A stretch of DNA of 64,000 nt from Candidatus Kaiserbacteria bacterium (GCA_016214605.1 JACROD010000014.1:41074-105073); one strand, 5' to 3'. Positions 1-48,837 are shown, counted from the first letter of the stretch. Translations and numbers: made by a program. Notes: generated from the sequence alone by a model not told the origin.

Positions 1-732
1 CTCGTACAACGTCTCACCAAATACACCAAGGGCACTTGGTCGGGATTCATGAATCGTCCGACCAATGTCGACATGAACAAAAAACTCGTCGTCTTCTCGG
101 TCCGAGACATGGAAGACGACCTTAAGCCTGCCGCCATGTACATCATCACCCACCACATCTGGAACACAGTGCGCAAAGAACTCCGTAAGCGCCTTCTCGT
201 GATCGACGAAGCGTGGTGGATGATGCGTTCCGAAGACACCGCGTCGTTCCTCTTCTCGATCGCCAAGCGCGGGCGCAAATACTACCTCGGTATCTCGACC
301 ATCACCCAGGACGTCTCCGACTTCTTGAACTCTCCCTACGGCATCCCGATGATCACTAACTCGTCGATCCAGCTCTTGTTGCGCCAATCGCCGACATCGG
401 TCGATCTCGTGCAAAGCACATTCAAACTTTCTGACGAAGAGAAATATCTCTTACTCGAATCGGACGTAGGGGAAGGGATCTTCTTCGCAGGGCTCAAGCA
501 TGTGGCACTCAAGGTGATCGCCTCATATACCGAGGACCAAATCATCACCTCAGATCCTTCTCAGATCCTTGCCATCAAAAAAGCAAAGCAGCAGCTTGCC
601 GCCGTGAACGAGGGTGGCCCAGAAGCCGAAGTGGCCGCTGCTAATGTGGTCGCAGAGCACGCCACTCCGGGCGCTGACACCGCAGGGGTCGGCGCAAGCA
701 CGATCAACAGTGGTGCCTTGAGAGAGGTATGA
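1..732 (+). CDS. VirB4/TrbE-like type IV secretion ATPase, C-terminal portion (5' end lies outside the window)
   Basis: reading frame is open from base 1 to the stop at 732; motifs LLVIDEAWWMM (Walker B-like DEAW) and KYYLGISTITQDVSDF typical of the VirB4/CagE C-terminal ATPase domain. Confidence 0.6.
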   Translation, partial: LVQRLTKYTKGTWSGFMNRPTNVDMNKKLVVFSVRDMEDDLKPAAMYIITHHIWNTVRKELRKRLLVIDEAWWMMRSEDTASFLFSIAKRGRKYYLGISTITQDVSDFLNSPYGIPMITNSSIQLLLRQSPTSVDLVQSTFKLSDEEKYLLLESDVGEGIFFAGLKHVALKVIASYTEDQIITSDPSQILAIKKAKQQLAAVNEGGPEAEVAAANVVAEHATPGADTAGVGASTINSGALREV

Positions 733-1079
733 CGAAAAGACGGATCAGTACATTGAGCGGTTTTCTGCTCTTTGCGTCCGCTCTCATTGTGGATGGGGTT
801 CAGGCATTGGTCGACCTCCTCGTCCTCATTCCCGGGATAGGTATCGTACTGGCTTTTGCTCTCGGCGTGGTCGTCGACGTATCTGCCTGTTTTCTCTTTG
901 GCTTCTGGTTCTCTCATTTGGGACTGCCCTTGCTGACGCGTTACCCACTTGGATTTCTCGGAACACTCGTCATTGAAAATATCCCCGGATTGAATTCACT
1001 CCCCACATGGACTCTTTTTGTGGCCAAGATCATTGCACAAGAGCGTATACGAGAGGGGACGTCTTCAGACGAGGTATAA
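729..1079 (+). CDS. small integral membrane protein (possible T4SS component)
   Basis: ATGA start/stop overlap with the upstream gene; 116 aa with about three hydrophobic helices. Confidence 0.35.
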   Translation: MTKRRISTLSGFLLFASALIVDGVQALVDLLVLIPGIGIVLAFALGVVVDVSACFLFGFWFSHLGLPLLTRYPLGFLGTLVIENIPGLNSLPTWTLFVAKIIAQERIREGTSSDEV

Positions 1080-1087
1080 TACTGTGT

Positions 1088-2143
1088 ATGGCAATAGTGC
1101 AAAAACATTTTCTTTTCACATTGTTTTTGTTGGCACTTCTACTCACCGCGCCCATGGCGTATGCGCAGTCCGGAGCCATCTTCGTTAGTCCCAACCCTGA
1201 GGCAGTGGCGACCATTATCATGATTCCAAAAAATCCATCGCCCGGAGACACCGTGCACCTTACCGTGACCGGCGGATCACTACTCGACCTCCAAAACAGC
1301 ACTATTACTTGGTTTCAAAATGGCAAGCTTATTTCTAAAGGAGTCGGGTATGCGAGTCTCGACATTACCACTGGCACTCTTGGATCAGAGGATGACGTGA
1401 ATGTACAAGTTGACTCTCCGGACGGCGCGACGGCCGCGAGCTCGATCTCGATCATCCCGACACACGTCGACCTGCTCCTCGATTCCGATTCGTATATTCC
1501 GCCCTTCTACCGGGGCAGAGCACTGCCCTCCGCCGGTACTCACATGCAAGCGCAAGCGTTGGTATATTTCAAACGGAGCGACGGATCATTCATACCACCA
1601 AATTCGATCATATATACGTGGAAGGTGAATGGGCAGGTCATCGGAAATGTCTCAGGGAAAGGGAGGCAAACGGCAGTTCTTCCTGCACCGGTATTATTCG
1701 GGACCAGCAACGTCTCTATCGAGGCCGTATCGACCGATAATCTTTTTACTGGATCGGCATCTACCAATATCTCGTCTGTCGAACCTATTCTCATGCTTTA
1801 CGAAGACCATCCACTTTTCGGCATACTCTTTCATCGTGCCATGGGGCAAACGACCACTATTCCAGATTCTGAAATGACGTTTGCCGCAGTGCCTTATTTT
1901 ACTCAAGTGAAAAATCCCAACGACCCACAACTGCGCTATCATTGGATGGTAAACGGAAACCTTATCGTTGCCGACACTAACCATCCGAGTGAGATCGTTA
2001 TCAACGCCGACAAATCCAATGGGGAAGCCGCTATCACGCTTGCACTCAACCATGCGAGTAATTTTTTAATGAACGCAAAAGGAAGTTGGGACGTTATATT
2101 CAAGGTATTTGATCAAACAAACGCTTTTTTCTCTAATTTTTAA
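1088..2143 (+). CDS. secreted hypothetical protein
   Basis: internal ATG of track ORF 1007..2143 that begins right after the 1079 stop; N-terminal signal peptide MAIVQKHFLFTLFLLALLLTAPMAYAQ. Confidence 0.5.
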   Translation: MAIVQKHFLFTLFLLALLLTAPMAYAQSGAIFVSPNPEAVATIIMIPKNPSPGDTVHLTVTGGSLLDLQNSTITWFQNGKLISKGVGYASLDITTGTLGSEDDVNVQVDSPDGATAASSISIIPTHVDLLLDSDSYIPPFYRGRALPSAGTHMQAQALVYFKRSDGSFIPPNSIIYTWKVNGQVIGNVSGKGRQTAVLPAPVLFGTSNVSIEAVSTDNLFTGSASTNISSVEPILMLYEDHPLFGILFHRAMGQTTTIPDSEMTFAAVPYFTQVKNPNDPQLRYHWMVNGNLIVADTNHPSEIVINADKSNGEAAITLALNHASNFLMNAKGSWDVIFKVFDQTNAFFSNF

Positions 2144-2149
2144 TCTCTT

Positions 2150-3397
2150 ATGCATGCCACACGACTTTTCCTACTCTATCTACTCGCTGTCGTTATCGTC
2201 ATAATCCTTGGCGGATTCGTTGGGTGGTACTTCTTTTTGCATATACCACAAACGAAAGAGGCTGTAGTCGACGCGGCACGAGGACTTAATTCTTCGATAA
2301 ACCCTTTCACGGGCGGAAGTACGCAGGACAATATTCGCGTAGAGGTCGCCGGCAACTCCACCAGCACGGCCGAAGTGCCGACATCTGCGCTATGGCAAGT
2401 AGATAAGACGCCCGTCGCTGGCATGAATTTTGTTAAACATGCGACTTCCACTTCTCTAGATTATATACAGCGCGCAAACGGATACGTCTTTCGGGCCGAT
2501 CCGAAAACAAAGACGGTCGTTCGCCTAACGGAAACCCTGACACCAAAGATTTATGAGGCCTTCGTGAGTTCCGACGGTGCCGTGATCGCCCGCTCTCTCG
2601 ATGATTCCGGGTCGATCACCACATTTATGGCGACCGTGGGAGCCACCACATCAAAAACAAGTACTTCTACCGAACAAAACACATTGAGAGGCTCTTATGT
2701 CGCCAAAAATATCTCTTCTGTGGTCCCAAGCCCTACGACACACTCCATCTTTTATACCATTCCCAATGACATTGGAGGGGTCGATGGATACACCGCCCTC
2801 TGGGACGGATCGAAACCAAAAAAGATCTTCATTTCGATCATTTCTCACTGGACACCTCTATGGCTTTCGGACGGACGCCTTATTATCACAGAAAACCCTG
2901 CCGATGATATGCCGGGCTATGCCTATAGTGTGAGTAACGATGGCACTATGACACTATTGGTCGGCAACGTCCCAGGACTCACATTCCTGCCACTCTCATC
3001 CTCAAAAGCGGTCATTTACGGAGCATCTGCAAACGGCGTACTTTCACTTTTTGCCCAAGGGGCTGCCAGCACTACCCCAAACACCCTCAATATTCAAACG
3101 GTCGCCGATAAATGCGTGTGGCTGGGAGGTAAAAGTCTCATCGCTTACTGCGCTGTTCCGACGACTCCTCCTACAGGAAAATTCCTTGATCAGTGGTACC
3201 GCGGAGTTATTCACACTTCTGATTCATGGTGGAAAGTAGACGTCCAAAACAGTGTTGCCCTAGAAATATATTCACCGAAGACGACGAATAACGTCGACCT
3301 CGACGTCGAACGCCCCACCATTGATCCGAGTGGAAATTATATTGCCTTTATCAACGCGTCCGACAAATCGCTTTGGATGCTTAATATACCCCAATAA
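2150..3397 (+). CDS. membrane-anchored extracellular hypothetical protein
   Basis: 415 aa ORF; one N-terminal TM helix (LFLLYLLAVVIVIILGGFVGWYFF) followed by a Ser/Thr-rich ectodomain. Confidence 0.5.
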   Translation: MHATRLFLLYLLAVVIVIILGGFVGWYFFLHIPQTKEAVVDAARGLNSSINPFTGGSTQDNIRVEVAGNSTSTAEVPTSALWQVDKTPVAGMNFVKHATSTSLDYIQRANGYVFRADPKTKTVVRLTETLTPKIYEAFVSSDGAVIARSLDDSGSITTFMATVGATTSKTSTSTEQNTLRGSYVAKNISSVVPSPTTHSIFYTIPNDIGGVDGYTALWDGSKPKKIFISIISHWTPLWLSDGRLIITENPADDMPGYAYSVSNDGTMTLLVGNVPGLTFLPLSSSKAVIYGASANGVLSLFAQGAASTTPNTLNIQTVADKCVWLGGKSLIAYCAVPTTPPTGKFLDQWYRGVIHTSDSWWKVDVQNSVALEIYSPKTTNNVDLDVERPTIDPSGNYIAFINASDKSLWMLNIPQ

Positions 3398-3400
3398 TCT

Positions 3401-3841
3401 ATGCGTTCAGTAATAAAAATAAAGTACTGTCTTCGTATTGGATTGTTCTTACTCAGTATTTTTGGGTTGTTTATTTTGACCGCCACACTGACCTTCGCAC
3501 AACAAACAACGGCCGGCACGTCAAACTTCGTACCCCTTGTCGATCTTCCATCGCAGTCGTCAAAGTTTGCTGGCTTTTATTCTGCGCAGAACCTCAGCGC
3601 ATTTCTCAACCGACTGTTCTTTTTTGCAATCTCGCTCGGTGGCATACTTGCGGTCGGACGACTGGTCTATGCAGGATGGCTTTACACGATGGGCGACATG
3701 GGGGGAAACATCAAAAAAGCGAAGGAGATCATCGGTAATGTTGTGATCGGCCTCCTTCTTCTTCTTTCAATCTGGCTGATCTTGAACCAAATAAATCCAG
3801 AGATCCTAAATCTGAGTATTTTACGTAATCTCGGCGGATGA
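3401..3841 (+). CDS. TrbC/VirB2-like pilin-like protein
   Basis: 146 aa; signal peptide plus two hydrophobic helices (FFFAISLGGILAVGRLVYAGWLY and VVIGLLLLLSIWLILNQI), the VirB2/TrbC architecture; follows the VirB4-like gene. Confidence 0.4.
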   Translation: MRSVIKIKYCLRIGLFLLSIFGLFILTATLTFAQQTTAGTSNFVPLVDLPSQSSKFAGFYSAQNLSAFLNRLFFFAISLGGILAVGRLVYAGWLYTMGDMGGNIKKAKEIIGNVVIGLLLLLSIWLILNQINPEILNLSILRNLGG

Positions 3842-3945
3842 GCTGGTACCGCCACCGGCGGCGGCGCATCAGGCAGCTTTTAGTAGATATTTGGAGCAGG
3901 CTGGGCCAGCATCCGGACCATAAGATTGATCGTTGTAATATTGTC

Positions 3946-4416
3946 TTATGCGGCGTATTTGATCACAACCCGTCTATTGCGCCCCTCACCTTGTGACTCG
4001 GTCTTTATGTTCGAGGCTTCGGCGAGTGTTGTGTGTACGATAAGGCGCTCATAGGCGCTCATAGGGGACAACTCGACATCATACTGGAACGAACGGGCCC
4101 GCTCGGCCATTATCAAAGCCTTCGACTGAAGGTCTTTGATCTGTTTGGTCCGGTGGTCATTGACATCAACCAGGAATAGGGGCTCGTTGCGCGTGGCGCC
4201 CTCCTGTGAACCAGCTTGTTTTTCGGCAATCTTTTTTACCAAAGAGTCGATCGCGTGGATCGTCTCGCTGTGAAATCCTATGAGAGATGCGCCGGAATCT
4301 TTCGTCACAATCGAATAGATCGTCTGTCCAGCAAGTTCGGTTTCAGTGACATCACGGTAATCAATACCGGCGGCATTAAGCAGATTCTTGACGATATCAA
4401 CGACATTGAGACTCAT
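3946..4416 (-). CDS. jag: Jag/KhpB R3H-domain RNA-binding protein
   Basis: 156 aa; position immediately downstream of yidC with overlapping stop/start; C-terminal R3H-like region (…RRVVIKYAA). Confidence 0.7.
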   Translation of the reverse strand: MSLNVVDIVKNLLNAAGIDYRDVTETELAGQTIYSIVTKDSGASLIGFHSETIHAIDSLVKKIAEKQAGSQEGATRNEPLFLVDVNDHRTKQIKDLQSKALIMAERARSFQYDVELSPMSAYERLIVHTTLAEASNIKTESQGEGRNRRVVIKYAA

Positions 4417-5183
4417 TGAGCCTTTTTATCATAAAAACGTCTCCCAGCCAAGTATTCTTGCGCGATCATAAAAAGATTACTCGTCACATAGTAGAGCGGA
4501 GCGGCGGCGGCGACCACATAGACCACAAAACCAATAACAAGAGGGAGCATGTAGCGCACCTGGAGGTCGAAGCTTTTAGCCATATCGTTTGAAAGAGACT
4601 CTTCTACAGCTGTTTTACCTGCCCGCGGCCCCATAGAGAGGCGAGAATATATCATTTGGGTCGCTACCGTGAGTATGGCAAGCACTATATTGTGTTTTGC
4701 GCCCACATCTATGACGCCCAAGAACATCATATTGACTGTTTCCGGACGCGGCACAAAACTATACAAAACGGCCTCATTGAGGTGCGGGAGCCCACCCATG
4801 GCAAATATCCAGTAGAGGGCGATCAAAATGGGTAACTGGACCAACATAAGCCCAAGGCCGGCAAAAGGGTGTATATCGTGCTCTTTATAGAAGGCAAAAA
4901 CAGCTTGGGTCTGTTCTGGGGAATTCTTTTTATATTTTTTCTTCAGCTCTTCCACTGCAGGAACGGCTTTTTTCATTGCGATCTGGGATTGGATAGCGCG
5001 TTTTGAAAGAGGGTAAACGACCAATCGTACCAAAATCGTCAATAAGACGATCGCGATACCTACATCATGGCTGGGGATATGGTCGACCAAAAAAATAAGC
5101 CCGTTGTAGAGAGGGTTATAGACCACTGCATGGAAGGTGCTCGATATCATAAGGGAATTGTAGCCTGGAAAGGTGTTTATCAA
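4413..5183 (-). CDS. yidC: membrane protein insertase YidC (short form)
   Basis: 256 aa multi-TM YidC/Oxa1-like sequence; conserved rnpA-yidC-jag order. Confidence 0.85.
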   Translation of the reverse strand: MINTFPGYNSLMISSTFHAVVYNPLYNGLIFLVDHIPSHDVGIAIVLLTILVRLVVYPLSKRAIQSQIAMKKAVPAVEELKKKYKKNSPEQTQAVFAFYKEHDIHPFAGLGLMLVQLPILIALYWIFAMGGLPHLNEAVLYSFVPRPETVNMMFLGVIDVGAKHNIVLAILTVATQMIYSRLSMGPRAGKTAVEESLSNDMAKSFDLQVRYMLPLVIGFVVYVVAAAAPLYYVTSNLFMIAQEYLAGRRFYDKKAQ

Positions 5184-5186
5184 AAG

Positions 5187-5528
5187 TTATTTTAAAATAC
5201 CATTTACCTTGAGTACCTGGGCCACATCTTCTGATAATTGCTCAAAAGTGGCTTTAGTACTCGATGAATTGGTATAAAAAGCCAGCGCCAGTGGTTGTTT
5301 GACCTGCGGCATGAGACCCTGCAAGACCGCTCGAAAACGACGCTTGATGAGATTGCGATCCACAGCCTTACGAGAGACTTTTTTGGAGACGATGCAGGCG
5401 GCTTTCGGGGGAGTGTCCACCGGAAGAGGAAAGATCGAAAGAGTAAAAAACACTCCGCGTACACGGCGTGTTTTTTGGCTTGAAAACAGCTTAAAATCGG
5501 CACGTGTGAGCCGAAATTTGGTAGGCAT
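5187..5528 (-). CDS. rnpA: ribonuclease P protein component
   Basis: internal ATG (MPTKFRLTRADF…) of track ORF 5187..5609; basic RnpA-like sequence; sits between rpmH and yidC. Confidence 0.75.
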   Translation of the reverse strand: MPTKFRLTRADFKLFSSQKTRRVRGVFFTLSIFPLPVDTPPKAACIVSKKVSRKAVDRNLIKRRFRAVLQGLMPQVKQPLALAFYTNSSSTKATFEQLSEDVAQVLKVNGILK

Positions 5529-5538
5529 TGGATGGCCG

Positions 5539-5673
5539 TTAGACAGTAAGTGCAGCGCGCCCCTTGCGGCGACGGCGAATAAGGACACGGGCGCCGGTCT
5601 TGGTAGCACTACGGACGAGAAATCCGTGTGTTTTGGCTCTTTTGCGCTTTTTTGGCTGGTATGTTCGCTTCAT
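5539..5673 (-). CDS. rpmH: 50S ribosomal protein L34
   Basis: not in the ORF track (44 aa); minus-strand translation [44 protein letters not shown]. Confidence 0.85.
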
Positions 5674-5708
5674 CGCGCCACTATAACCTTTCCACACCAA
5701 AACTCAAG

Positions 5709-5825
5709 GGCCACCAAATGAATTCGTTATTTTTTGTTCGAGGACCGAACCCGCAGGCTCGCGGAGCGGCCGTGAGGGCGCTCCGCGTTCCGCAGAACAA
5801 AAAATAACGAATTCATTTGGTGGCC
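5709..5825. repeat. 117-nt near-perfect palindrome (31-bp perfect arms, GC-rich 55-nt centre with inner 9-bp stem)
   Basis: ggccaccaaatgaattcgttattttttgttc at 5709-5739 is the exact reverse complement of 5795-5825; inner cgcggagcg/cgctccgcg. Confidence 0.85.
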
Positions 5826-5831
5826 TAACCA

Positions 5832-5902
5832 CTATCCACACCTTATCCACACCTTGTGAACATGTGGAGAAGAATACGTCTATCTTCTACTGTGTGAATA
5901 CG
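5832..5902 (+). promoter_or_regulatory. DnaA-box cluster and -10 element upstream of dnaA
   Basis: ctatccaca 5832-5840, ttatccaca 5843-5851 (perfect TTATCCACA), tgtggagaa 5863-5871; TATAAT at 5897-5902. Confidence 0.55.
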
Positions 5903-5935
5903 AGCGTATAATGAAGCCGTTAGTCGCGTGCACCT

Positions 5936-7288
5936 ATGATGGCAAACAGAGAACTCTGGCAGAACGCACTCGTACAGATCGAGCTTGGCACCTCTGAGAC
6001 GAGTTTCCGCACTTGGTTCCGCAACACCGACATCGCAAACAGGGAGGGGGGTGTCGTGCATGTGGCCGTCCCTTCCAAGATCGTCAAAGAGTGGTTGATG
6101 GACAAACACAACAAACTCATCCTCAAAGCGCTTCGCGGCCTTGATCCGACCATTCGGACGGTTGAATACACCATCCACAAATCCATCGCCCCCGTTGCCG
6201 ACCGAAAGGCTCCCCGTCCACAAGTCTCCGACAACGCCTCTCTGGACCTCAACAGCCTCTACATCGATAAACGAGACAATCTCAACCCACGGTACACCTT
6301 TGAGACCTTCGTTGTGGGACCCTTTAATCAACTCGCTCACGCAGCAGCCAAAGCTGTCCTTGACCGGCCCGGCCTTAGCTATAATCCGCTTTTTATTTAC
6401 GGATCGACCGGCCACGGAAAGACCCATTTGATCCAAGCGGTGGGTAATTATTTCAAAAAAGCCCACGCCAACAAAAAAGTCCTTTATGTGACTTCTGAGC
6501 GCTTTGCTATCGACTACATAAATGCGGTGCGTTCCGGCCACGCGAACAATTTTAAAGACCAATATCGGCAATACGATGTATTGATTATGGATGACGTCCA
6601 ATTCATTGCGAACACAGAAAAGACCCAAGAGGAACTTTTTCACCTTTTTAATGCGCTTCGCGACAACAATAAACAGATCGTCTTCTCGTCAGATAGGCAC
6701 CCCTCCTTACTTAACGGTTTTGAAGATCGTCTCAAGGGGCGTTTTGCCGGCGGTATGATCGCCGAGATCCCTGAACCGGACATAGAATCCCGTACTGCGA
6801 TCATTCGAGCAAAGATAGAACAGCATGGATTTTCGATCCCTGAGGATATTATTACCTACATAGCGGAAAATGTTCGCGGCAACATCAGAGAGTTGGAAGG
6901 TGTTCTTAATATGATCGTTTGTCGATCCCAACTGAAAGGAAAAGTGATCTCTCACGCGGATGTGCGCGCCCTCATTAAACACAACACGAAACCATCGAAG
7001 GGTGTTTCTGTGGAGGAAGTTGTTCGGCGTATCGCGCACTATTATGATATTGCCGAGAAAAGCATCTATGAAAAGACACGAAAAAAGGAGGTGGTGCGGC
7101 CCCGACAGGTGATTATGTATATTTTGCGTGAAGAATTTAACATCTCATACCCTTCGATAGGGGAGAAACTCGGGGGACGGGATCATACAACCGTGATTCA
7201 TTCGTGTGAGAAGATAAAAGAAGAGATGAAGACTAATAACTCCCTTGAGGCCGAAGTGGAGCATGTTCGATCCCTTATTCAGGTATAA
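5936..7288 (+). CDS. dnaA: chromosomal replication initiator DnaA
   Basis: 450 aa; Walker A GSTGHGKTHLIQA; AAA+ and C-terminal DNA-binding domain; followed by dnaN. Confidence 0.95.
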   Translation: MMANRELWQNALVQIELGTSETSFRTWFRNTDIANREGGVVHVAVPSKIVKEWLMDKHNKLILKALRGLDPTIRTVEYTIHKSIAPVADRKAPRPQVSDNASLDLNSLYIDKRDNLNPRYTFETFVVGPFNQLAHAAAKAVLDRPGLSYNPLFIYGSTGHGKTHLIQAVGNYFKKAHANKKVLYVTSERFAIDYINAVRSGHANNFKDQYRQYDVLIMDDVQFIANTEKTQEELFHLFNALRDNNKQIVFSSDRHPSLLNGFEDRLKGRFAGGMIAEIPEPDIESRTAIIRAKIEQHGFSIPEDIITYIAENVRGNIRELEGVLNMIVCRSQLKGKVISHADVRALIKHNTKPSKGVSVEEVVRRIAHYYDIAEKSIYEKTRKKEVVRPRQVIMYILREEFNISYPSIGEKLGGRDHTTVIHSCEKIKEEMKTNNSLEAEVEHVRSLIQV

Positions 7289-7525
7289 ATTGTGGATAAT
7301 CATGTGTATATGTGTATGAATAGTACGTTGAAAAGAGGTGCGGAGAGTAGAGGATATAGACAAGTGCTTACCCATACACTTCTTATACCCACATTAAATC
7401 ACCATTACGCACAAAGTTTTCAACAATCGGACATATGGAATAAATCCTTTCTTTTCAACAAAAAATTCAGTTTTCCCCATTATCCACACCACTAATAGAG
7501 TTAGTAAGTTTTTAAAAATTTTTCT
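7289..7525. promoter_or_regulatory. candidate oriC (dnaA-dnaN intergenic, AT-rich, DnaA boxes)
   Basis: perfect DnaA boxes tgtggataa 7291-7299 and ttatccaca 7480-7488 flanking an AT-rich stretch. Confidence 0.5.
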
Positions 7526-8629
7526 ATGAAGATCAGTACAAGAAAAGAATCGATTGTGCAGGCAGTACTTCTCTCTGAGAGAGTCACGGGGAAGAAGGAG
7601 TCTCTCCCTATTCTCTCCTGTATTCTGATCGATGCTCAAGAGAATGTGGTGGTGCGTGCGACCAATCTGGAGAGTGGTGTGGATGTGCGTGTACCGGCGG
7701 AGATCGAGGAGAAGGGCAGGGTGGCTGTCATGGCCTCAGTGCTCTCACAAACACTACGTTCTATAAATAGTGATACCGTTACTCTTAAGACCAATGACGA
7801 CGGTAATCTTGTTATTGAATCTCGCGGCACCAAGACGGTTATAAAAGCGATCCCTCATGATGAATTTCCGACACTTTCTCGCGATACTGGTGAAAAGAAA
7901 GGTGTAACGGTACTTCGTGACCGTTTTTTACGCGGTCTTCAGGCTGTTATCTATGCGGCCTCACCTTCCATGATCCGTCCGGAATTGGGGAGTGTGTATG
8001 TGTCTATAAAACAAGGAGTTATTGTGTGCGCAGCCACAGATTCATTTCGTTTGGCGGAAAAAACCATCCCTGGTGGGTCTAGGGAGGAGGTAGGGGACAT
8101 ACTAATACCACTCAAGCATGCACTCGAGCTCGTGCATATACTTGAGCGCCTCAATACAGAAAATATCGAGGTGCTCGTCGAAGAGACGGACCTCGATGTC
8201 CGGTCTGATAGTACACGATTTATTTCTCGTGTGGTTGATGGGACATTTCCCAACTACAAAGAGATTATTCCCAAAAAATTCACCACAGAAGCAACACTCC
8301 TCAAGAGTGACCTGTCGGAAATGCTCCGAAAGGCGCGTATATTTTCAGGCAACGACCAACATGTGGGACTCCATGTATATCCGGGGCGTAAGATATTTTC
8401 CGCCACAGCGCGCAGTAATGATGTGGGGGAAATGTCCGATTCTATAGATGCCGCTATCCAGGGAGAAGATATAGATATTAATTTTCACATCGGGTATCTC
8501 GGAGAGTGTCTCTCTTCAATCGAGTCGGACAGTATCACGCTTGGGTTTGGTGGTATCGGTAGGCCGATGGTGGTGCGCGGCGTGTCGGATGCCACATTCA
8601 CGTATTTGGTAATGCCGCTTAATCGCTAA
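7526..8629 (+). CDS. dnaN: DNA polymerase III beta sliding clamp
   Basis: 367 aa with beta-clamp three-domain pattern; directly after dnaA. Confidence 0.9.
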   Translation: MKISTRKESIVQAVLLSERVTGKKESLPILSCILIDAQENVVVRATNLESGVDVRVPAEIEEKGRVAVMASVLSQTLRSINSDTVTLKTNDDGNLVIESRGTKTVIKAIPHDEFPTLSRDTGEKKGVTVLRDRFLRGLQAVIYAASPSMIRPELGSVYVSIKQGVIVCAATDSFRLAEKTIPGGSREEVGDILIPLKHALELVHILERLNTENIEVLVEETDLDVRSDSTRFISRVVDGTFPNYKEIIPKKFTTEATLLKSDLSEMLRKARIFSGNDQHVGLHVYPGRKIFSATARSNDVGEMSDSIDAAIQGEDIDINFHIGYLGECLSSIESDSITLGFGGIGRPMVVRGVSDATFTYLVMPLNR

Positions 8630-8640
8630 TCTCTCCTGGT

Positions 8641-10860
8641 CTAGAACTGTGGAATGATTGTGTGTGATGAATCGGTATTTCCCGGAAGGGTGTTTATAGG
8701 GAATGTGGCAGTGGATGTGGCGTCTGTGGTGGAGGTACTTATAGTACCTCTGACCCAGAGTTGTACTGCATAATCCCAATAAGGAAACTGAGAATCACTG
8801 TAAGGATTTCCGGTTTGTGTATTGTGTGGGTTGTCTTTTTGTACCCAATATAAAATATCATGTACTCCTCGCGAGGGGTCGGTGTTCCAATTACCGCGCA
8901 AAACAGGCGGTAGGGAATCTTCGTCTGGATCGGGGGCCGGTGGGGTAAAACGATCACTCGGATACTTTTCGGCAGCATACACCATCACATCATGCCATGG
9001 TGGCGCTACGATGAATGCCGCTATCTTTTTTACCATAGGACTATTATCGTTGTTGCCGGCCCATGCGCCGATCGCAATAGACGGTGTGTAGCCGATGACC
9101 CAAGCGTCGCGAGAGTCGTTGGTTGTTCCCGTCTTATCGGCTACGTCCATACGATGGAAATTCAACGGACTATCAACGCCGAATTCGGGGGTGCGCGCCA
9201 CATTATCGGAAAGGACATCATTGATCTGTCGTGCGACCTGTGGATCAAGAACACGTGTCGAGTTGGCTGTGTATTTTTCGAGCACATGTCCGCGATTGTC
9301 CCGTACCTCAAGGATGCCTGTAGGTGGATTCTTCACCCCATCGTTGGCGAATACACCATATGCACTCGTCATATCAAGCAAGGTCACTTCGCCGCCGCCG
9401 AGCACCAAAGTGAGTCCGTATTGATTTGGGTCGCCAAGAGTCGTGATGCCGAGAGCTTCGGCGGTATCGATCGCGTTTTGTATCCCGACAAGATAAAGGG
9501 TTTTGATCGCGGGGATGTTTTGCGATTGGGCGAGTGCGTTACGTAGACTCATGGGCCCCTTGAAATTTCCATCGTAGTTTTGTGGCGAATAACAAGGTGG
9601 TTCACCGTTAGTCACATCTTCAACTTTACACGCGGTCGAGAATTGTGTTTGCAGGTCGAATACGACAGTGTTTGGGGTGTATCCTTTTGCGAAGGCTGCC
9701 GCGTACACAAATGGTTTAAACGATGACCCTGGTTGGCGATGGGCAACAGTAATATTTACTTGGCCGTCGATGTTGTCATTGAAGTACTCTTTGGAGCCGA
9801 CCATAGTGAGGATCTGTCCGGTCTTCGGATCGATCGCCACAAGGCCCATATTTGAGGCGTTGAAGTTGTTTTGCATGGCAGGTGCATATGATCGTATGAC
9901 CGATTCGGCCTTTTGTTGCAAATCATAATCAAGAGTGGTGATCACACGGAGTCCGTCGTTGTTTACCGCATCGACACCGTATTTTTTCTCAAGATACTCT
10001 CTCACAAAGAATACAAAATGCGGCGCTTTGATTCCGGCTTCTTTTTCACTCGTGAATTCGACCTTTTCACCTTTGGCGGCCCGGTATTCTTCTTCGGTTA
10101 TATAGCCTAAAACCTTCATTCTTTGGAGTACAAGATTTTTACGTATGTCGAGTGCGGCGCGGTTGTTGCCGTATGGTGAATAATAAGTGGGTGCCTGCGG
10201 GATCGCGGCTATATATGCTGCCTGTGCAAGATCGACATCTTTTGCGTCGAGACCGAAGAAGTATTGGGTCGCCTCCTGTACTCCATAGATTGTGCCGCCG
10301 TACGGGGATTCGTTGAGGTAGGCGCTGAGGATCTGTTCTTTTGAGTATGTGCGCGTGAGGCGTAGTGCAAGAATGATCTCTTGAAGTTTGCGAAGAATGG
10401 TTTTATTTTGGGACAAAAGGGCATTCTTGACGACCTGTTGAGTGATCGTCGAGCCGCCCTGCTCGTATGATCCACTGAACAAGTCCACCAGCATGGCGCG
10501 CGCAAACGAGAGGGGACGAAATCCGGCGTTGGTGTAAAAAGAGGAATCTTCGATCGACACAGTCGCTTTTTGAATATAAGGAGAAATATCTTCTATAGGG
10601 ACCGAGGTGCGGCGAACCGACCCGTGTACATCGTAGAGCACGATATTACCGGTACGATCGTATATTTTTGTCGATTCGGAGACCTGTCGCGCCTCGAAGT
10701 TGTCTATAGAGGGGATCGGCATGATAGCAGCCCACACAAGCATGACGCCGAAGAAAAAGAGAAATAACGCGAAACTTCCTATGATCGCGAGCTTGAGCCA
10801 CTGAAAAGCGTTATTTTGGGCCATTTTTTTAGCTGGTACAAATCGTCGTAATCTGTGCAT
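8641..10860 (-). CDS. class A penicillin-binding protein (glycosyltransferase + transpeptidase)
   Basis: 739 aa; N-terminal TM helix, GT51 motifs (EDSSFY, GGSTITQQ), transpeptidase SxxK (GSSFKPF). Confidence 0.85.
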   Translation of the reverse strand: MHRLRRFVPAKKMAQNNAFQWLKLAIIGSFALFLFFFGVMLVWAAIMPIPSIDNFEARQVSESTKIYDRTGNIVLYDVHGSVRRTSVPIEDISPYIQKATVSIEDSSFYTNAGFRPLSFARAMLVDLFSGSYEQGGSTITQQVVKNALLSQNKTILRKLQEIILALRLTRTYSKEQILSAYLNESPYGGTIYGVQEATQYFFGLDAKDVDLAQAAYIAAIPQAPTYYSPYGNNRAALDIRKNLVLQRMKVLGYITEEEYRAAKGEKVEFTSEKEAGIKAPHFVFFVREYLEKKYGVDAVNNDGLRVITTLDYDLQQKAESVIRSYAPAMQNNFNASNMGLVAIDPKTGQILTMVGSKEYFNDNIDGQVNITVAHRQPGSSFKPFVYAAAFAKGYTPNTVVFDLQTQFSTACKVEDVTNGEPPCYSPQNYDGNFKGPMSLRNALAQSQNIPAIKTLYLVGIQNAIDTAEALGITTLGDPNQYGLTLVLGGGEVTLLDMTSAYGVFANDGVKNPPTGILEVRDNRGHVLEKYTANSTRVLDPQVARQINDVLSDNVARTPEFGVDSPLNFHRMDVADKTGTTNDSRDAWVIGYTPSIAIGAWAGNNDNSPMVKKIAAFIVAPPWHDVMVYAAEKYPSDRFTPPAPDPDEDSLPPVLRGNWNTDPSRGVHDILYWVQKDNPHNTQTGNPYSDSQFPYWDYAVQLWVRGTISTSTTDATSTATFPINTLPGNTDSSHTIIPQF

Positions 10861-11661: not shown

Positions 11662-13119
11662 ATGTTTGATCCAGTAAAATTACTCCAATTTGTTCTAGGT
11701 CTTCCAAAAGAGACTGAATATCTCGAATTTAAAGAGAATAATCTGAGTGAAAAGACATTGGGTGAACTGATTTCTGCGATATCGAACGCGGCGTGTTTGT
11801 GTGATGTTGAATATGGATATGTTGTGTACGGAATAGAAGATTCCACTCATACAGTAGTTGGTACAAAACTCAAACCAAGATCAATAAAGATAGGGGGTGA
11901 GGATATGGAGCTTTGGCTACAAAAAATGCTCGACCCGTCCATTAACTTTGAAATATTTGAACTTGATTTCAATGGGATGCCTGTGGTTATTTTTAAAATA
12001 CCAGCGGCAACAGAGCGGCCGTTACGATTTCAGAGCCAATCCTATATTCGAATAGGTAGTAATATGCGTAACCTAAAAGAATTTCCTGAAAAAGAAGCAA
12101 TTATTTGGAATAAAGCAAGAAATCGTTTTTTTGAAAAACTTGAAGCCATCCCAAATCTCTCGGAGGATGAGGTTTTAAAATTACTCGATTACCCAAGTTA
12201 TTTCAGACTTACAGACCAGTCATTACCAGGAAACCCAAGTGGGATATTAGATTTTCTAATTAAAGAAGGTTTTGTTAAGCAAGAAGACGGAACTGGATAT
12301 GCGGTTACAAATCTGGGGGCAATTTTATTTGCAAATGACCTGAGTCAATTTCCATCACTAAAAAGAAAGGCCGCTAGAGTTGTTGTTTATGAGGGGATGG
12401 ATAGGACGAAAACAGTAAAAGATCGTGAAGGTAAGCGTGGGTACGCGGTAGGGTTTGAAAATCTTATTGAGTTTATTAATGACCAACTTCCTTCTAATGA
12501 GGAGATTGAAAAAGCACTGCGTGTCCAAAGAAAGATGTATCCAGAAATAGCAATTCGCGAGCTCGTCGCGAACGCACTTATTCATCAGGATCTTACTGAG
12601 CGTGGTACAGGACCATCCTTCGAAATATTTAGTGATCGAATTGAAATTAGTAATCCCGGTAGGCCGCTCATTGAGGTGGATAGGTTCCTTGACCATAAGC
12701 CACAATCTCGTAATGAACAACTTGCAGCCTTTCTGCGGCGGATAGGTGTTTGCGAAGAGCGTGGGAGTGGGATTGATAAGGTCTTTAAATCTATCGAAGT
12801 GTTTCAGTTACCCGCACCTAAATTTGATGTCAATGATAAATACCTAAATGTGATACTTTTCGCTCCTCAAGATGTTAGAGAAATGAGCAAGGAAGATAGA
12901 ATTCGAGCATGTTTTCAGCATGCATGTCTTCGCCATGTCTCAAATGAAACCATGACAAATGCTTCATTAAGAGAAAGATTCAAACTCTCGGATAGTAAAA
13001 CTGATAGTGTCTTTGCATCCAATATTATATCTGAAGCGATTAAAGCTGGAAAAATTAAGTTATTAGGGGATGATCCAAACGCTAGAAAATCTGCAAAATA
13101 TGGCCCACCCTGGGCTTAA
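11662..13119 (+). CDS. Schlafen/AlbA_2-like divergent AAA ATPase with C-terminal HATPase_c_4-like domain (COG2865-type predicted regulator)
   Basis: 485 aa; clearly AT-rich compared with flanks; inserted on the opposite strand between ruvC and yebC. Confidence 0.55.
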   Translation: MFDPVKLLQFVLGLPKETEYLEFKENNLSEKTLGELISAISNAACLCDVEYGYVVYGIEDSTHTVVGTKLKPRSIKIGGEDMELWLQKMLDPSINFEIFELDFNGMPVVIFKIPAATERPLRFQSQSYIRIGSNMRNLKEFPEKEAIIWNKARNRFFEKLEAIPNLSEDEVLKLLDYPSYFRLTDQSLPGNPSGILDFLIKEGFVKQEDGTGYAVTNLGAILFANDLSQFPSLKRKAARVVVYEGMDRTKTVKDREGKRGYAVGFENLIEFINDQLPSNEEIEKALRVQRKMYPEIAIRELVANALIHQDLTERGTGPSFEIFSDRIEISNPGRPLIEVDRFLDHKPQSRNEQLAAFLRRIGVCEERGSGIDKVFKSIEVFQLPAPKFDVNDKYLNVILFAPQDVREMSKEDRIRACFQHACLRHVSNETMTNASLRERFKLSDSKTDSVFASNIISEAIKAGKIKLLGDDPNARKSAKYGPPWA

Positions 13120-19000: not shown

Positions 19001-19181
19001 ACTCCTCCTTGAGGATTCGGTGACGGGTTATTTTGGTCCCGGTACCGAGGAAGCGGTACGTCAGTTCCAAGCGTCGCGAGGAGTTGTCTCAAACGGTACA
19101 TCGGAAACCACCGGCTATGGGCGTGTGGGGCAACGTACACGCGCGCTTCTGGTGAGTCTGGGACAGATGCAGGTCCAATAG
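16032..19181 (+). CDS. large secreted protein (likely beta-helix) with C-terminal peptidoglycan-binding domain
   Basis: 1049 aa; signal peptide; C-terminal PG_binding_1-like segment (…YFGPGTEEAVRQFQASRGV…). Confidence 0.7.
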   Translation: MHTYLRAGFFLSIHTRLLQITLLLLIFAGMIPQLASAATLQPGVDCATGAAAPQAEYSLNVSALPLGAYAANTLSPDFTNAAGSVLANSFWTASSTKYAVSANTAQSILASKYCSRDMEVETWMRKGYVFLRLTPEGKAIYFNIDYDNSYLAVGIATSTNETAYYPGATRTLYLNSNLVGTIPGFSKTGTDNQRLTFGVEGFEIYAKFNGVEFMRIKDFHHMAAGRVALKAPANYGLRSTTVRNFADKAILSDLTAGVYDPRDFGFRSIQTTGSISAGSNTLTLAGPTSFAVGDFVIVEIGKEPGAGMRGTKGVGGTWPAKSYPNLTAMQADTSQIDGLYAWREDTGDVYRFASANSSWGSAYTWYTAGTPAWGQDYYSKKYYPAKAVPRALQARITAVSNSGATLTLDKPAVVSVTSASAYLDVAPILNFLVGRDIWYKFGGVAGDLRSFTPLNMKVPIPAGSYAVGGSILTGNERTNNVLYGQGSTTSTLFSPKGVSSASIWFNGSNNMLRDLRLVGNFGDNGFGLNWATSIIPFGYGPSGLEVTYTSTGAVTETVITQGFGFPIGIMMSGGNLTVQDIKVDNVWWAAVGANYCNTCWAYRVDSTVKDPFQTYIQWQFEWGDSTGGGCVDCTVTSPQWIIPGFAMAKSTNVQFIRPKGINAVFDANSVGNFLFQDPETTIKSMSQFSTSSFSAMGWIMNINTNLDNALPVQDRDKRSGPGGKIINPRFIVQGPINSSNNGLGAIVINNWNPNVTIEGGYIEGPNWQSPSTINTPVGVNSQGTSTVINGLRVVGTVNPALGPKGNVALGKNGIIRNCIVDLIFLSGTARKENCKTNAEYGALGISTGAALWPPRTSIILQGSITSSGSTSTVRGFAYGTTTKYMATTTESGLFGPGSFSVTVPNIVCATTYHAAAYAQNAVGMNYGNDITFASDPCTPSAAATSSGQVLGVSITDTSLVDTSCKIDRMLSRGTHGPAVTCLQKTLVAQKLLLEDSVTGYFGPGTEEAVRQFQASRGVVSNGTSETTGYGRVGQRTRALLVSLGQMQVQ

Positions 19182-26775: not shown

Positions 26776-27414
26776 ATGAAGACTTTTGCTTTTATTGATG
26801 CGTCCAATCTCTTTTATGGCGGCAGAAAATCGCTCGGGTGGAGTATTGATTATGAAAAATTACTCGCATACCTGAAGAAAAAATATGAGGTAGAAACTAT
26901 CTATTTTTTCGGCGGCGTAGAGATACATCGGTTTCCATTCGATTACCTTGCGCACGAGACGGTACCTGTACGACAGCTCGAGGAGTATTTGGCAGGGTTG
27001 ATCAAGGAAAAAGGCGATTACATGAGCGATGCGCAGATTATACTTCTGGAGCGGCATTTGCGGCGTGTTCGCTTTTACCGCAAACTCGAACAATTCGGCT
27101 ACATGCTCGTATTGAAACCGGTCAAAACCTACGATGAGGAGGGTAATCCGCGCCGCAAGGCCAACTGCGATGTGGACATGGCATACTGCCTTATGAGGGA
27201 ACTGAACAATTTCAATCGCGCGTTGGTGCTTTCCGGCGACGGCGATTTCTTGCCGGTGTTGAAATTTTTGCGAGCGAACGAGAAAGAGGTGCTGGTGATG
27301 GCGCGCGGGCACCGGACGGCAAAGGAAATCAAAAGATTTGCCGGGGATAGATTCATGGACTTCACACGCTTGCAACATAAACTGCAGCGCGATGAAGAAG
27401 AGGAACTATATTAA
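26776..27414 (+). CDS. NYN/LabA-like domain nuclease
   Basis: FAFIDASNLFYGG…, CDVDMA…, SGDGDF motifs of the NYN/PIN-like fold; preceded by TATAAT at about 26763. Confidence 0.65.
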   Translation: MKTFAFIDASNLFYGGRKSLGWSIDYEKLLAYLKKKYEVETIYFFGGVEIHRFPFDYLAHETVPVRQLEEYLAGLIKEKGDYMSDAQIILLERHLRRVRFYRKLEQFGYMLVLKPVKTYDEEGNPRRKANCDVDMAYCLMRELNNFNRALVLSGDGDFLPVLKFLRANEKEVLVMARGHRTAKEIKRFAGDRFMDFTRLQHKLQRDEEEELY

Positions 27415-46085: not shown

Positions 46086-46333
46086 TTTGACAAATAGGTA
46101 TCAAGTATGCTACACTATCCAGTAGTTAGAACCTTGAAACAGAGCCAAGAAAAAGGCCGAACTACATAGGTGTAACCTATGTAGTGAATGTGCCACAGCA
46201 GAAAGCGACTCTCAAGGAGCTACGGCTCCGAGGTGCCGAATTCAGCAGAATTCGGCCAAAACATGGGTACTTTTCTGCTGTGGCAAGCCTTGGATGGTCC
46301 AAGGAACCGGCAGTACAACAAAAGGAGCTGACC
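46086..46333 (+). promoter_or_regulatory. promoter (TTGACA-17-CTACACT) and about 210-nt highly structured 5' leader of the DGR target gene
   Basis: hairpins ctacatagg/cctatgtag (46162-46184), 12-bp ccacagcagaaa/tttctgctgtgg (46193-46204 with 46272-46283), gccgaattc/gaattcggc (46235-46256), ggagc/gctcc, ccttgg/ccaagg; SD AGGAG at 46323-46327. Confidence 0.45.
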
Positions 46334-46906
46334 ATGTCACAGGACATGCTCGGTGGCTCAGGTGAAGACCTCGGCCTCATTATCGACTTCACGCAGAAGT
46401 TGCGTCATGGGGGGAGTGATTTTCGCGAAGCGGCGAAAAAGTTTCTCCGCAAGACACTTGTTACTTTGACGCTCGGCGACGGGCAAACAAAGACGCAGTT
46501 GCTTGCCGCCTACAACTGGGTCAGTGATGTCGCCCGCGCGTTTGTCATGTCGGAGCAGTTCCGCATGGCCTTTGTGCGCGAAGACGCCGACCTCGAGTTC
46601 GTCGAAGGCAGTGATTTCGATCACGATCCGTCCTCGGAAGAAGTACTCACCGAGCTCAAAAGGCGCGGCCTCGAAGAGCCGACCGAGGAAGATGCTCTGC
46701 GTTACGGTGCCACTTGCCCCGAAGGCAAGGACAAGCGCGCAGTGGTCTTCTTGCACAAGGCGAATCTATGGCGTGACCCGGGCGGCCACCTGGGCGTGTT
46801 GGTCTTCGACTGGGGTGGTTCGAAGCGCTACCTGGGCTGCTACCGGTTCGACGACCCGTGGTATCGGCAGCGCTCTCGGTTCGCCGGGCGCCGTCCCCGC
46901 AAGTAG
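46334..46906 (+). CDS. DGR target protein with C-terminal variable repeat (C-type-lectin/FGE-like fold expected)
   Basis: ATG with AGGAG SD inside track ORF 46184..46906 (track start is GTG inside leader hairpins); C-terminal 45 aa encoded by VR. Confidence 0.7.
   Translation: MSQDMLGGSGEDLGLIIDFTQKLRHGGSDFREAAKKFLRKTLVTLTLGDGQTKTQLLAAYNWVSDVARAFVMSEQFRMAFVREDADLEFVEGSDFDHDPSSEEVLTELKRRGLEEPTEEDALRYGATCPEGKDKRAVVFLHKANLWRDPGGHLGVLVFDWGGSKRYLGCYRFDDPWYRQRSRFAGRRPRK
46768..46902 (+). repeat. DGR variable repeat (VR)
   Basis: 135 nt matching TR 47243-47377 with about 17 mismatches, every one at a position that is A in TR. Confidence 0.85.
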
Positions 46907-46990
46907 CGCTTGGCCCTCGCACCTGTGCACTTGCACTCGGGCTTTTGCTCTTTGTCCTCGCGTCAGAAATGATGCGAGGGCTTTTGTTTG
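46904..46990 (+). other. GC-rich hairpin/terminator immediately 3' of VR
   Basis: gccctcgca (46912-46920) pairs with tgcgagggc (46970-46978), then TTTTGTTT; inner gtgca-ct-tgcac hairpin. Confidence 0.5.
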
Positions 46991-47242
46991 GTATAGTGAG
47001 AACGGTAGTAGGCGAATCTGCCGCAGATCACGGTTTGTGGCGGCTGAATCCAGTATCCTTCAGTCCGGAGCCGCAGAGATTACGGTCGATGCGGGAGCGA
47101 CTGTCGATATTCAAAAAACGAAGATACTTGGCGTGCGATGTCAGGGCATTACGATGCCGAATACGATACAGCCCGGAGAGTATTCGATGGGTGGTGGTAT
47201 CCGAGAATATCGGATGACAGGCATGGACGCCATTGCACGCAA

Positions 47243-47377: not shown

Positions 47378-47407
47378 CTCTCTTCATTTCCCGACATATT
47401 CTCAAAC

Positions 47408-47758: not shown

Positions 47759-47763
47759 GAGTC

Positions 47764-48837
47764 GTGCGGGGGGGGGGGTACGCCTCTAGGATTGTTTTCA
47801 CTCATACCTACGAGGATATCATCTCTGTAGAAAATCTCCTTGCCGCGTGGCAAGAGTTCGTCCGCGGCAAGCGCCAGAAGCGAGATGTGCAGGATTTCCA
47901 ACATCGCCTGATGGACAACATCCTCGCGCTCCATCGCGATTTGAAAAACAAAACGTACCGTCATGGCGCATACGAAGCCTTCAAGATCAATGACCCGAAG
48001 CCGCGCGACATACACAAGGCGACCGTGCGCGATCGGCTCCTGCACCATGCGCTCTATCGCCAGCTCTACCCCTTTTTCGACCGCACCTTTATCGCGGATT
48101 CGTATTCATGCAGAAAAGGTAAGGGGACGCACAAGGCGATGGATCGGTTTCGGTCATTTGCATACCAAGCGAGCAAGAATCATACGCGTACTGTCTGGGT
48201 GCTCAAATGCGACATCAGGAAGTTCTTCGCATCAATAGATCAAGCAATACTACTCAACATCGTCGAGAAATACATTCCCGACAAAGACATCAACTGGCTC
48301 ATCAGTGAGATCGTCGTGAGTTTCCAGACCCACACAACTATGCCTATAGGACGATCTGTGTGTATGGGGAGAAAAGGCCTGCCTGACCAGCAGGCAGGTT
48401 TGCCGCTCGGCAATCTCACCTCGCAACTGCTCGTGAACATCTATATGAACGAATTCGACCAGTTCGTGAAGCACAAGCTCAAAGTGAAACATTACGTGCG
48501 CTATGCCGATGATTTTGTGGTCCTTTCGCATGATCGCGCAGAGCTCGATCGGCTCCTTTCCAAGATCGAATCTTTTTTGCAAGATAAACTCAAATTACAA
48601 TTACATCCCGACAAGGTTTCGATCTCAACATTCGCCTCAGGAGTGGACTTCCTTGGATGGGTGCATTTTCCCGATCATCGCGTATTGCGGACGAGTACGA
48701 AACGACGGATGATGCGAGGTATTGTCGGACTGGAAAAAGATGATATGCGCGTACGGTCGTACCTCGGACTGCTTTTGCACGGAAATGCAGGAAGGCTTGC
48801 AGTATGTGTTGATTCTCTATGCACACCGCTTGCATAG
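47764..48837 (+). CDS. DGR reverse transcriptase
   Basis: 357 aa; RT motifs including YADDFVV (YxDD) and GLPLGNLTSQLL; N-terminal ENLLAAWQEFVRGKRQKRD typical of DGR RTs; track start GTG. Confidence 0.85.
   Translation: MRGGGYASRIVFTHTYEDIISVENLLAAWQEFVRGKRQKRDVQDFQHRLMDNILALHRDLKNKTYRHGAYEAFKINDPKPRDIHKATVRDRLLHHALYRQLYPFFDRTFIADSYSCRKGKGTHKAMDRFRSFAYQASKNHTRTVWVLKCDIRKFFASIDQAILLNIVEKYIPDKDINWLISEIVVSFQTHTTMPIGRSVCMGRKGLPDQQAGLPLGNLTSQLLVNIYMNEFDQFVKHKLKVKHYVRYADDFVVLSHDRAELDRLLSKIESFLQDKLKLQLHPDKVSISTFASGVDFLGWVHFPDHRVLRTSTKRRMMRGIVGLEKDDMRVRSYLGLLLHGNAGRLAVCVDSLCTPLA
47768..47778 (+). repeat. G11 homopolymer tract within codons 2-5 of the RT ORF
   Basis: gtg cgg ggg ggg ggg tac. Confidence 0.8.

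Follow-up and report, generated by a model that had tools for sequence, protein, structure and literature searches.

The first 3,841 nucleotides of a 64,000-nucleotide stretch of DNA from a Candidatus Kaiserbacteria bacterium (GCA_016214605.1 JACROD010000014.1:41074-105073; the whole stretch is called the window below) carry the end of a gene cluster for a type IV secretion system (T4SS). Within positions 1-3841 an open reading frame (ORF) scan found five co-oriented, tightly packed genes on the plus strand (Table 1): the 3' part of virB4, three genes for proteins of 116, 351 and 415 residues (here p116, p351 and p415), and a gene for a VirB2-like pilin. From virB4 to the pilin gene the spacing is operon-like, with a 4-bp overlap followed by gaps of 8, 6 and 3 nt. 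The initial annotation of this DNA, made from the sequence alone, had placed five ORFs at the same coordinates, in the same order and on the same strand, and had described them as a VirB4-like C-terminus, a small membrane protein, two secreted or anchored proteins and a protein with pilin architecture; all of these descriptions proved correct.

The VirB4 fragment contains a Walker B motif that reads LLVIDEAW in translation, which fits the hhhhDE pattern and agrees with the DEAW motif on which the initial annotation had relied. It matches the Pfam family P-loop_TraG (PF19044) at 2.3e-14, with 53 bits against a cut-off of 25.8. The best match in NCBIfam was the 'VirB4-like conjugal transfer ATPase, CD1110 family' (conju_CD1110, 1e-35), followed in order by TraC (2.7e-24), the VirB4 of a mycoplasma integrated conjugative element (ICE) and VirB4_CagE (3.4e-12), all with scores below the full-length cut-offs, since only 243 residues of the protein are present. 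The sole match among PDB sequences was the VirB4 C-terminal domain of Thermoanaerobacter pseudethanolicus (4AG5, 2e-21). By the Pfam, NCBIfam and PDB matches, the ATPase therefore classifies with VirB4 and not with another ATPase family. Database searches returned 2,240 proteins matching the fragment; the top matches were 75-95% identical, were named VirB4 or TraC and, where an organism was named, almost always came from metagenome-assembled genomes (MAGs) of Patescibacteria/Parcubacteria. In a collection of species-representative genomes, 529 stretches encode a relative, and the best 80 of these 529 belong to Kaiserbacteria, Nomurabacteria, Adlerbacteria, Campbellbacteria, Wolfebacteria and other Paceibacteria-type bins. 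Judged by its best matches, the fragment groups with the VirB4 proteins of Patescibacteria.

The last gene of the cluster had been proposed to encode a VirB2/TrbC-type pilin, and the family searches bear this out. The protein matches the Pfam family T4SS_pilin (PF18895) at 30.5 bits, above the curated cut-off of 26.6, as do 67 of 75 orthologues, 11 of the 75 also matching TrbC/VirB2 (PF04956). A hydropathy scan placed hydrophobic segments at residues 7-34, 65-83 and 106-133, which correspond to a long signal peptide (its site being LTFA followed by QQ) and two hydrophobic helices. The window has a single pilin gene, and 73 of 74 sources likewise have one copy per locus. The ORF with the pilin domain is much longer in several distant loci, in a few cases with lysozyme/SLT or peptidase S8 domains; such ORFs could be pilin-hydrolase fusions or cases of ORF over-extension.

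The VirB4 fragment aligns with residues 403-645 of a 645-residue VirB4 from a related locus (L083) at 93% identity; therefore about 402 N-terminal residues are cut off by the start of the window, in line with the initial view of a T4SS cluster truncated at that edge. The L083 orthologue carries a GAGKS motif and a TraC_F_IV-like N-terminal signal, the fragment itself being the C-terminal part only. Gene content upstream was taken from the nearest relatives, L083 and L084, whose p415 homologues are 71-73% identical to ours. In these the full cluster runs, with numbered proteins given by their length in residues, 288, 552, 858, 204, PrgI, TrsD-like, VirB4 (645), 116, 351, 415, pilin, jag and yidC. 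The 552-residue protein is secreted, and the 858-residue protein is VirB6-like, having seven hydrophobic segments and a long hydrophilic tail. PrgI (VirB3-like) and a 219-residue TrsD-like protein are encoded immediately upstream of virB4 in both L083 and L084, and tblastn found homologues of PrgI and TrsD in 76 of 85 related loci. The upstream boundary is ksgA, sometimes accompanied by uvrD, in 31 of the 85. The cluster annotated at the edge of the window thus continues, in orthologous loci, into other T4SS components (PrgI/VirB3, TrsD-like and VirB6-like).

Three of the related loci showed irregularities of their own. In the Kaiserbacteria relative L005 a gene annotated as '23S rRNA-intervening sequence protein' (four-helix bundle, 7.6e-39; positions 7001-7372, plus strand) lies inside the T4SS cluster, inserted between a 198-residue gene and PrgI. 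L001 (1-1278) is a 196-kb ENA contig that shares the synteny but starts about 250 bp ahead of its virB4 call, which is truncated and has 342 residues. In L002 (the 226-kb 'contig_13311', 8316-10765) virB4 is split into three to four ORFs, which may reflect frameshift errors of assembly.

None of the proteins p116, p351 and p415 matches a family in Pfam or NCBIfam. The hydropathy profile of p116 shows a hydrophobic stretch at the N-terminus and another that is long, as would suit a polytopic membrane protein. The p116 ATG at 729 overlaps the stop codon of virB4 (ATGA), and this overlap suggests translational coupling. A hidden Markov model built from the p116 family found members in 56 of the 85 related loci and no other match in the window; the gene directly follows virB4 wherever its position was checked (50 loci, virB4-p353 interval). 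We also considered p116 as a second, divergent pilin and rejected this candidate, hhalign giving a probability of 1.5% and no ORFs being common to both families.

The p351 gene starts with the ATG at 1088, which yields a protein identical to NCBI HZC00_01730. Two other starts were discarded: one at 1007 (a 378-residue ORF), which overlaps p116 and conflicts with all orthologues, and one at 1082, the true ATG being that of HZC00_01730. The AlphaFold model and the family alignment, begun at 1082, carry two extra N-terminal residues. The AlphaFold2 prediction (61 homologues; mean pLDDT 91.4, pTM 0.77) consists of a signal peptide and three tandem immunoglobulin (Ig)-like beta-sandwiches. The signal peptide ends in APMAYA followed by QS, with cleavage predicted after AYA, and the residues A28 and Q29 at this site are invariant in the 61 homologues. 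Foldseek matches were limited to generic multi-Ig proteins (Hoc, an S-layer protein, adhesins).

For p415 an identical protein is on record, HZC00_01735, from a 158.6-kb contig of a Candidatus Kaiserbacteria MAG. AlphaFold2 (66 homologues; pLDDT 88) predicts an N-terminal transmembrane helix, a disordered linker at about residues 47-77 and a propeller of 7 blades and 28 strands, predicted to be extracytoplasmic. Two cysteines, C322 and C334, are invariant, a pair that fits an extracytoplasmic location. Elsewhere in the window (39074-40196, minus strand) overlapping genes for VKOR and a DsbA-like thioredoxin encode an extracytoplasmic disulfide-forming pair, which likewise fits the cysteine pair of p415. 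Searches of the p351 and p415 family profiles against PDB sequences returned noise only.

Synteny was counted in the 54 species representatives with at least 7.5 kb of sequence downstream of virB4. Homologues of p351 and p415 follow virB4 in 54 of 54 of these loci. The order of the distal genes varies by subclade, being p353-pilin-p415 in 27 loci and p353-p415-pilin in 23 (the variants were compared, for example, in L028, L029, L033 and L037 versus L005, L007 and L083). With 2,240 database relatives of the ATPase and a gene order repeated in dozens of species, the five-gene arrangement lies far beyond chance.

Downstream, the cluster is bounded by the convergent genes jag-yidC-rnpA-rpmH, and the same genes follow it in relatives. 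The dnaA gene lies 2.1 kb from the pilin gene. A search for the DnaA-box TTATCCACA with up to one mismatch gave 22 matches against 11.6 expected, clustered at 5832-7488, and the cumulative GC skew reaches its lowest value near 4 kb; therefore the cluster ends about 2 kb from the replication origin. ORFs, Pfam matches and DnaA-boxes together confirm the earlier placement of the cluster end just before the jag-yidC-rnpA-rpmH block near the origin. A scan of positions 1-6000 found promoter-like sites at the frequency expected from shuffled sequence and no terminator between the pilin gene and jag. In the species representatives yidC occurs within 9 kb of virB4 in 53 of 54 and dnaA in 50 of 54, with a median distance of 5.3 kb between virB4 and dnaA. 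The slot, with ksgA on one side of the cluster and jag-yidC-rnpA-rpmH-dnaA on the other, is common to the Paceibacteria-type genomes sampled. Lying next to oriC, the genes may gain in dosage and expression.

Table 1. Genes and other features of the 64-kb window (T4SS, type IV secretion system; DGR, diversity-generating retroelement; TM, transmembrane).
Feature	Position	Strand	Description
virB4, 3' part	1..732	+	C-terminal 243 aa of T4SS ATPase; stop codon 730-732
p116	729..1079	+	116 aa, small polytopic membrane protein (predicted)
p351	1088..2143	+	351 aa, Sec-secreted (predicted), three tandem Ig-like beta-sandwich domains (model)
p415	2150..3397	+	415 aa, N-terminal TM anchor and 7-bladed beta-propeller (model)
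VirB2-like T4SS pilin	3401..3841	+	146 aa, Pfam PF18895
jag/R3H	3946..4416	-	Pfam R3H, 1.1e-15
yidC	4413..5183	-	Pfam 60KD_IMP, 2.1e-37
rnpA	about 5187..5540	-	ORF scan
rpmH	5539..5700	-	ORF scan
DnaA-boxes (three)	5832-5871		upstream of dnaA
dnaA	5936..7288	+	ORF scan; dnaN next
DnaA-boxes, perfect	7291-7299 and 7480-7488		dnaA-dnaN spacer
DGR target ORF	46184..46906	+	240 aa; variable repeat 46768-46902 at 3' end
DGR, possible Avd-like ORF	46858..47217		
DGR template repeat	47243-47377		88% identical to variable repeat
DGR reverse transcriptase	47764..48837	+	RVT_1, 5e-26

The initial annotation had left room for a conjugation apparatus or part of an integrated element, and this did not hold up. 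In addition to the fixed chromosomal slot, the GC content of the cluster (0.48-0.52) is like that of the rest of the window, with no compositional anomaly, and tRNA genes are absent from the 25 kb of the window nearest the cluster, the first being at 30 kb. When about 40 ORFs of the window, each at least 150 residues long, were scanned against Pfam, none matched a relaxase, a VirD4-type coupling protein or an integrase; the precomputed Pfam annotation of L002, L083 and L084 likewise shows none of the three over about 10 kb. Median identities in the same loci were 57% for a penicillin-binding protein (PBP), 55% for DnaA, 39% for DnaN, 38% for the pilin, 30% for p351 and 28% for p415; that for the VirB4 C-terminus was 81% across 80 species representatives, a figure inflated by the choice of the comparison loci as best VirB4 matches. 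Such a profile is the pattern expected of an indispensable, conserved motor with fast-diverging surface parts. On this sequence evidence, the cluster appears to be a vertically inherited core chromosomal locus and not a mobile or conjugative element.

Taken together, we interpret window 1-3841 as the distal third of the core chromosomal T4SS operon, of the Patescibacteria clade, of Candidatus Kaiserbacteria (Paceibacteria, Patescibacteria/candidate phyla radiation), and put the probability of this reading at roughly 85%. Such systems, which nearly all ultra-small Patescibacteria have next to their origin of replication, have been surveyed by Quinonero-Coronel et al. (2025), who found VirB4 in 2,417 of 3,035 Patescibacteria genomes, with nearly all of the proteins in one clade nested within MPF-FATA (PMC12102498). 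In that survey TrsD, PrgI/VirB3, VirB6 and VirB2-like pilins were encoded near virB4 and relaxases were almost absent, with only 15 relaxase genes near virB4 among 2,474 virB4 genes phylum-wide; in Paceibacteria and Microgenomatia the T4SS genes lay close to dnaA, dnaN, rnpA, rpmH and ksgA (PMC12102498). What the window contains is thus a known system in the place already reported for it, and as part of the same interpretation the Patescibacteria-clade T4SS would derive from monoderm MPF-FATA machinery that lost its link to a relaxase. Gene content, family assignments, predicted folds and topology, and the fixed position beside oriC are what we observe here. Our one modest addition is the predicted fold assignment for the conserved, unannotated accessory proteins, and not a new system; a search through the text of the survey turned up neither p116 nor an accessory protein with Ig-like domains or a propeller (PMC12102498).

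The closest resemblance is to the T4SS described for the Patescibacteria clade, with which the locus shares a CPR-type VirB4, a PF18895 pilin within the cluster, the lack of a detected nearby relaxase or coupling protein, upstream genes for PrgI/VirB3, TrsD-like and VirB6-like proteins (in orthologous loci), a chromosomal position beside dnaA, dnaN, rnpA, rpmH and ksgA, and exported Ig-like proteins in or next to the cluster. In Southlakia epibionticum, a member of the Saccharibacteria, transposon sequencing showed that SEML1_0006-0019, including a pilin array, is essential for epibiotic growth, and SEML1_0005, an exported Ig-like protein encoded just outside this interval, is likewise essential (Wang et al. 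2023; PMC10633639). Unlike the Saccharibacteria T4SS, the Kaiserbacteria cluster has a single pilin gene instead of an array of six, and p116, p351 and p415 follow virB4 in place of lysozyme or peptidase genes.

Among better known systems, the MPF-FATA machines of monoderms (pCF10 Prg/Pcf, pGO1 Trs, C. difficile CTn2 CD1110 and pIP501) are similar in that CD1110 is the best VirB4 model, PrgI and TrsD homologues are present (in the loci of relatives), and both kinds belong to a monoderm envelope and have no outer-membrane core of VirB7/9/10. In contrast to the present cluster, they are carried on plasmids or ICEs, encode a relaxase, a PcfC/TcpA-type coupling protein, a hydrolase resembling VirB1, VirB8-like proteins and surface adhesins, and have no VirB2 pilins; ours is fixed in the chromosome, includes a pilin gene and has no DNA-processing genes. 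With Agrobacterium VirB/VirD4 and other diderm MPF-T systems the cluster shares the VirB4 motor and a pilin composed of a long signal peptide and two hydrophobic helices, the PF04956 matches among the pilin orthologues pointing the same way. Unlike these, it has no detected VirB5, 7, 8, 9, 10 or 11 and no outer membrane, and its VirB4 is nearer to monoderm families. Finally, ComB of H. pylori, Ced of Sulfolobales and Ptl of Bordetella likewise have no nearby relaxase or coupling protein and provide a precedent for a non-conjugative or import function, but we found no specific sequence relationship to them (the CedB match was 1.5e-6 against 1e-35 for CD1110), and ComB and Ptl are diderm systems with VirB7-10 homologues, unlike the cluster here.

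These features lead us to suggest how the machine might work. A VirB4 hexamer would be held at the membrane by the PrgI/VirB3-like and TrsD-like proteins encoded upstream, on a VirB6-like polytopic channel. Using ATP, it would pull the Sec-inserted, signal-peptide-processed VirB2-like pilin out of the membrane, and the pilin would polymerise into a tube crossing the single-membrane envelope. The presumably co-transcribed p116, three-Ig rod p351 and propeller p415 would act on the outer face of the membrane as a wall-spanning or host-contact part, standing in for the missing VirB8/9/10 or a PrgB-type adhesin. The whole would serve as a contact-dependent conduit between epibiont and host for the transfer of macromolecules. 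As a rough weighting of roles, we give acquisition of host cytoplasmic macromolecules ~40%, effector export ~35%, adhesion only ~15% and conjugation <5%. Reviews name effector delivery and nucleic-acid acquisition as candidate functions (PMC11665869; PMC12857230), and a 2026 preprint on a cultured relative describes uptake of host RNA as well as tubular structures, maybe T4SS pili, where parasite and host meet (bioRxiv 10.64898/2026.06.21.733656). A bolder version of this scheme, to which we lend only limited credence, is that p116, p351 and p415 together make up a hitherto unrecognised structural part of the T4SS in Paceibacteria. Arranged around a VirB2-type tube in a monoderm, they would form a collar that spans the wall or a device for docking to the host, and would define a new architectural subclass that takes up host macromolecules such as RNA.

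Several points weigh against our interpretation, in addition to the biased choice of comparison loci. The window holds the last 243 VirB4 residues only, and Walker A and the upstream half of the cluster are inferred from orthologues. A p116 homologue is missing from 29 of the 85 related loci, fold searches of the accessory proteins gave generic folds and no T4SS component, and the tie of p116, p351 and p415 to the T4SS would consist of conserved adjacency, operon-like spacing and predicted location only. A coupling protein may sit elsewhere in the genome, as many VirD4 homologues lie far from virB4 (PMC12102498).

The reading most at odds with a core chromosomal operon is that of an ICE, or the decaying remnant of one, which serves or once served conjugative DNA transfer. 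The VirB4 fragment is indeed most similar to conjugative ATPases from ICEs and plasmids of monoderms (the CD1110 and TraC matches above), and the whole system is thought to descend from conjugative machinery (PMC12102498). Nevertheless, in 50-53 of the 54 species representatives the cluster is found at one and the same chromosomal position, with ksgA on one side and jag-yidC-rnpA-rpmH-dnaA on the other. Its GC content is ordinary, the window ORFs scanned and the ~10-kb flanks of three relatives gave no integrase, relaxase or coupling protein, and the window has no tRNA gene less than 25 kb from the cluster. Moreover, the phylum-wide scarcity of relaxase genes near virB4 (PMC12102498) speaks against it, and the VirB4 C-terminus is more conserved than DnaA, therefore the gene is not decaying. 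We consider the ICE reading of the present locus very improbable. An even smaller probability, close to nil, attaches to the ATPase being another additional-strand P-loop ATPase (of HerA/FtsK, VirD4 or T2SS-E type) in a region that is not a T4SS at all. Such a reading draws on the visibility of the C-terminal part alone and on sub-threshold matches to AAA_10 and, in full-length orthologues, to DUF87/HerA. It was rejected on the NCBIfam and PDB results: all of the best matches are to VirB4, TraC or CD1110 models and the sole PDB match is to a VirB4 C-terminal domain, while the orthologue has the length of VirB4 and the TraC_F_IV N-terminal signal, and PrgI, TrsD and a T4SS pilin flank the ATPase.

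Two further explanations accept the T4SS and differ over what it does or contains. A dedicated nucleic-acid import machine, resembling ComB of H. pylori or Ced of Sulfolobales and feeding nucleotides to a non-synthesising organism, is a specific version of the functional half of our own explanation. It accords with the lack of a detected relaxase or nearby coupling protein, as in ComB, with the weak NCBIfam match to the DNA-import ATPase CedB, with the naming of T4SSs as a candidate route of nucleotide acquisition in reviews (PMC11665869), and with the host RNA uptake and tubular structures described in the preprint. Set against this, the CedB match is far weaker than those to conjugative VirB4 families, the cluster contains no ComEC-like or nuclease partner, comEC and the DNA uptake depending on it are dispensable in S. 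epibionticum (PMC12857230), and the sequence gives no sign of the direction of transport; we regard such an import machine as possible and hold it tentatively. The DNA-uptake apparatus that the initial annotation had named is likewise no more than a possibility. It is also conceivable that only virB4 and the pilin gene belong to the T4SS and that p116, p351 and p415 are unrelated envelope proteins encoded between them. Their lack of sequence or fold similarity to known T4SS components would be explained in this way, as would the loss of p116 from a third of related loci and the variable position of p415 relative to the pilin gene. Yet homologues of p351 and p415 lie between virB4 and yidC in every one of the 54 loci despite a median identity of 28-30%, and the genes are on the same strand, overlapping or 3-8 nt apart, and bracketed by virB4 and the pilin gene. 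All three products are predicted membrane or extracytoplasmic proteins, and it is there that known parts are lacking in a monoderm T4SS; the exported Ig-like SEML1_0005 beside the T4SS cluster of S. epibionticum is essential as well (PMC10633639). On balance, we think it improbable that the three are bystanders and keep to the interpretation of a single T4SS operon.

The remainder of the window contains other features of note. A complete diversity-generating retroelement (DGR) lies at 46184-48837 on the plus strand (Table 1), and wherever its two repeats differ, the template has an A and the variable copy another base. Type IV pilus genes are represented by a PilB-type T2SSE ATPase with an MshEN domain (5e-114; 19237-20946, minus strand) and by PilM (5e-28; 43272-44399, plus strand), the type IV pilus being the other envelope machine known to be essential in Saccharibacteria. 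Three large putative surface proteins are encoded on the plus strand: one of 1049 residues with a C-terminal PG_binding_1 domain (16032-19181), one of 1180 residues with six Pur_ac_phosph_N-like/fn3 repeats and two PG_binding_1 domains (49703-53245), and one of 725 residues with no Pfam match (35682-37859). Also on the plus strand, among housekeeping genes (ruvABC, polA, tsaE), are genes for a Schlafen/AlbA_2 and HATPase_c_4 protein (11662-13119), an ankyrin-repeat protein (25245-26738) and a NYN-domain nuclease-like protein (26776-27414).

Patescibacteria are abundant and mostly uncultured, and their T4SS is one of few machines whose essential role in epibiotic life has been demonstrated. The window provides a clean Kaiserbacteria example. 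Across Paceibacteria-type genomes the motor proves extremely conserved, beyond even DnaA in the same loci, and the surface parts diverge fast. Always present and with confidently predicted folds, p351 and p415 are reasonable candidates for the envelope or host-contact parts of the machine.

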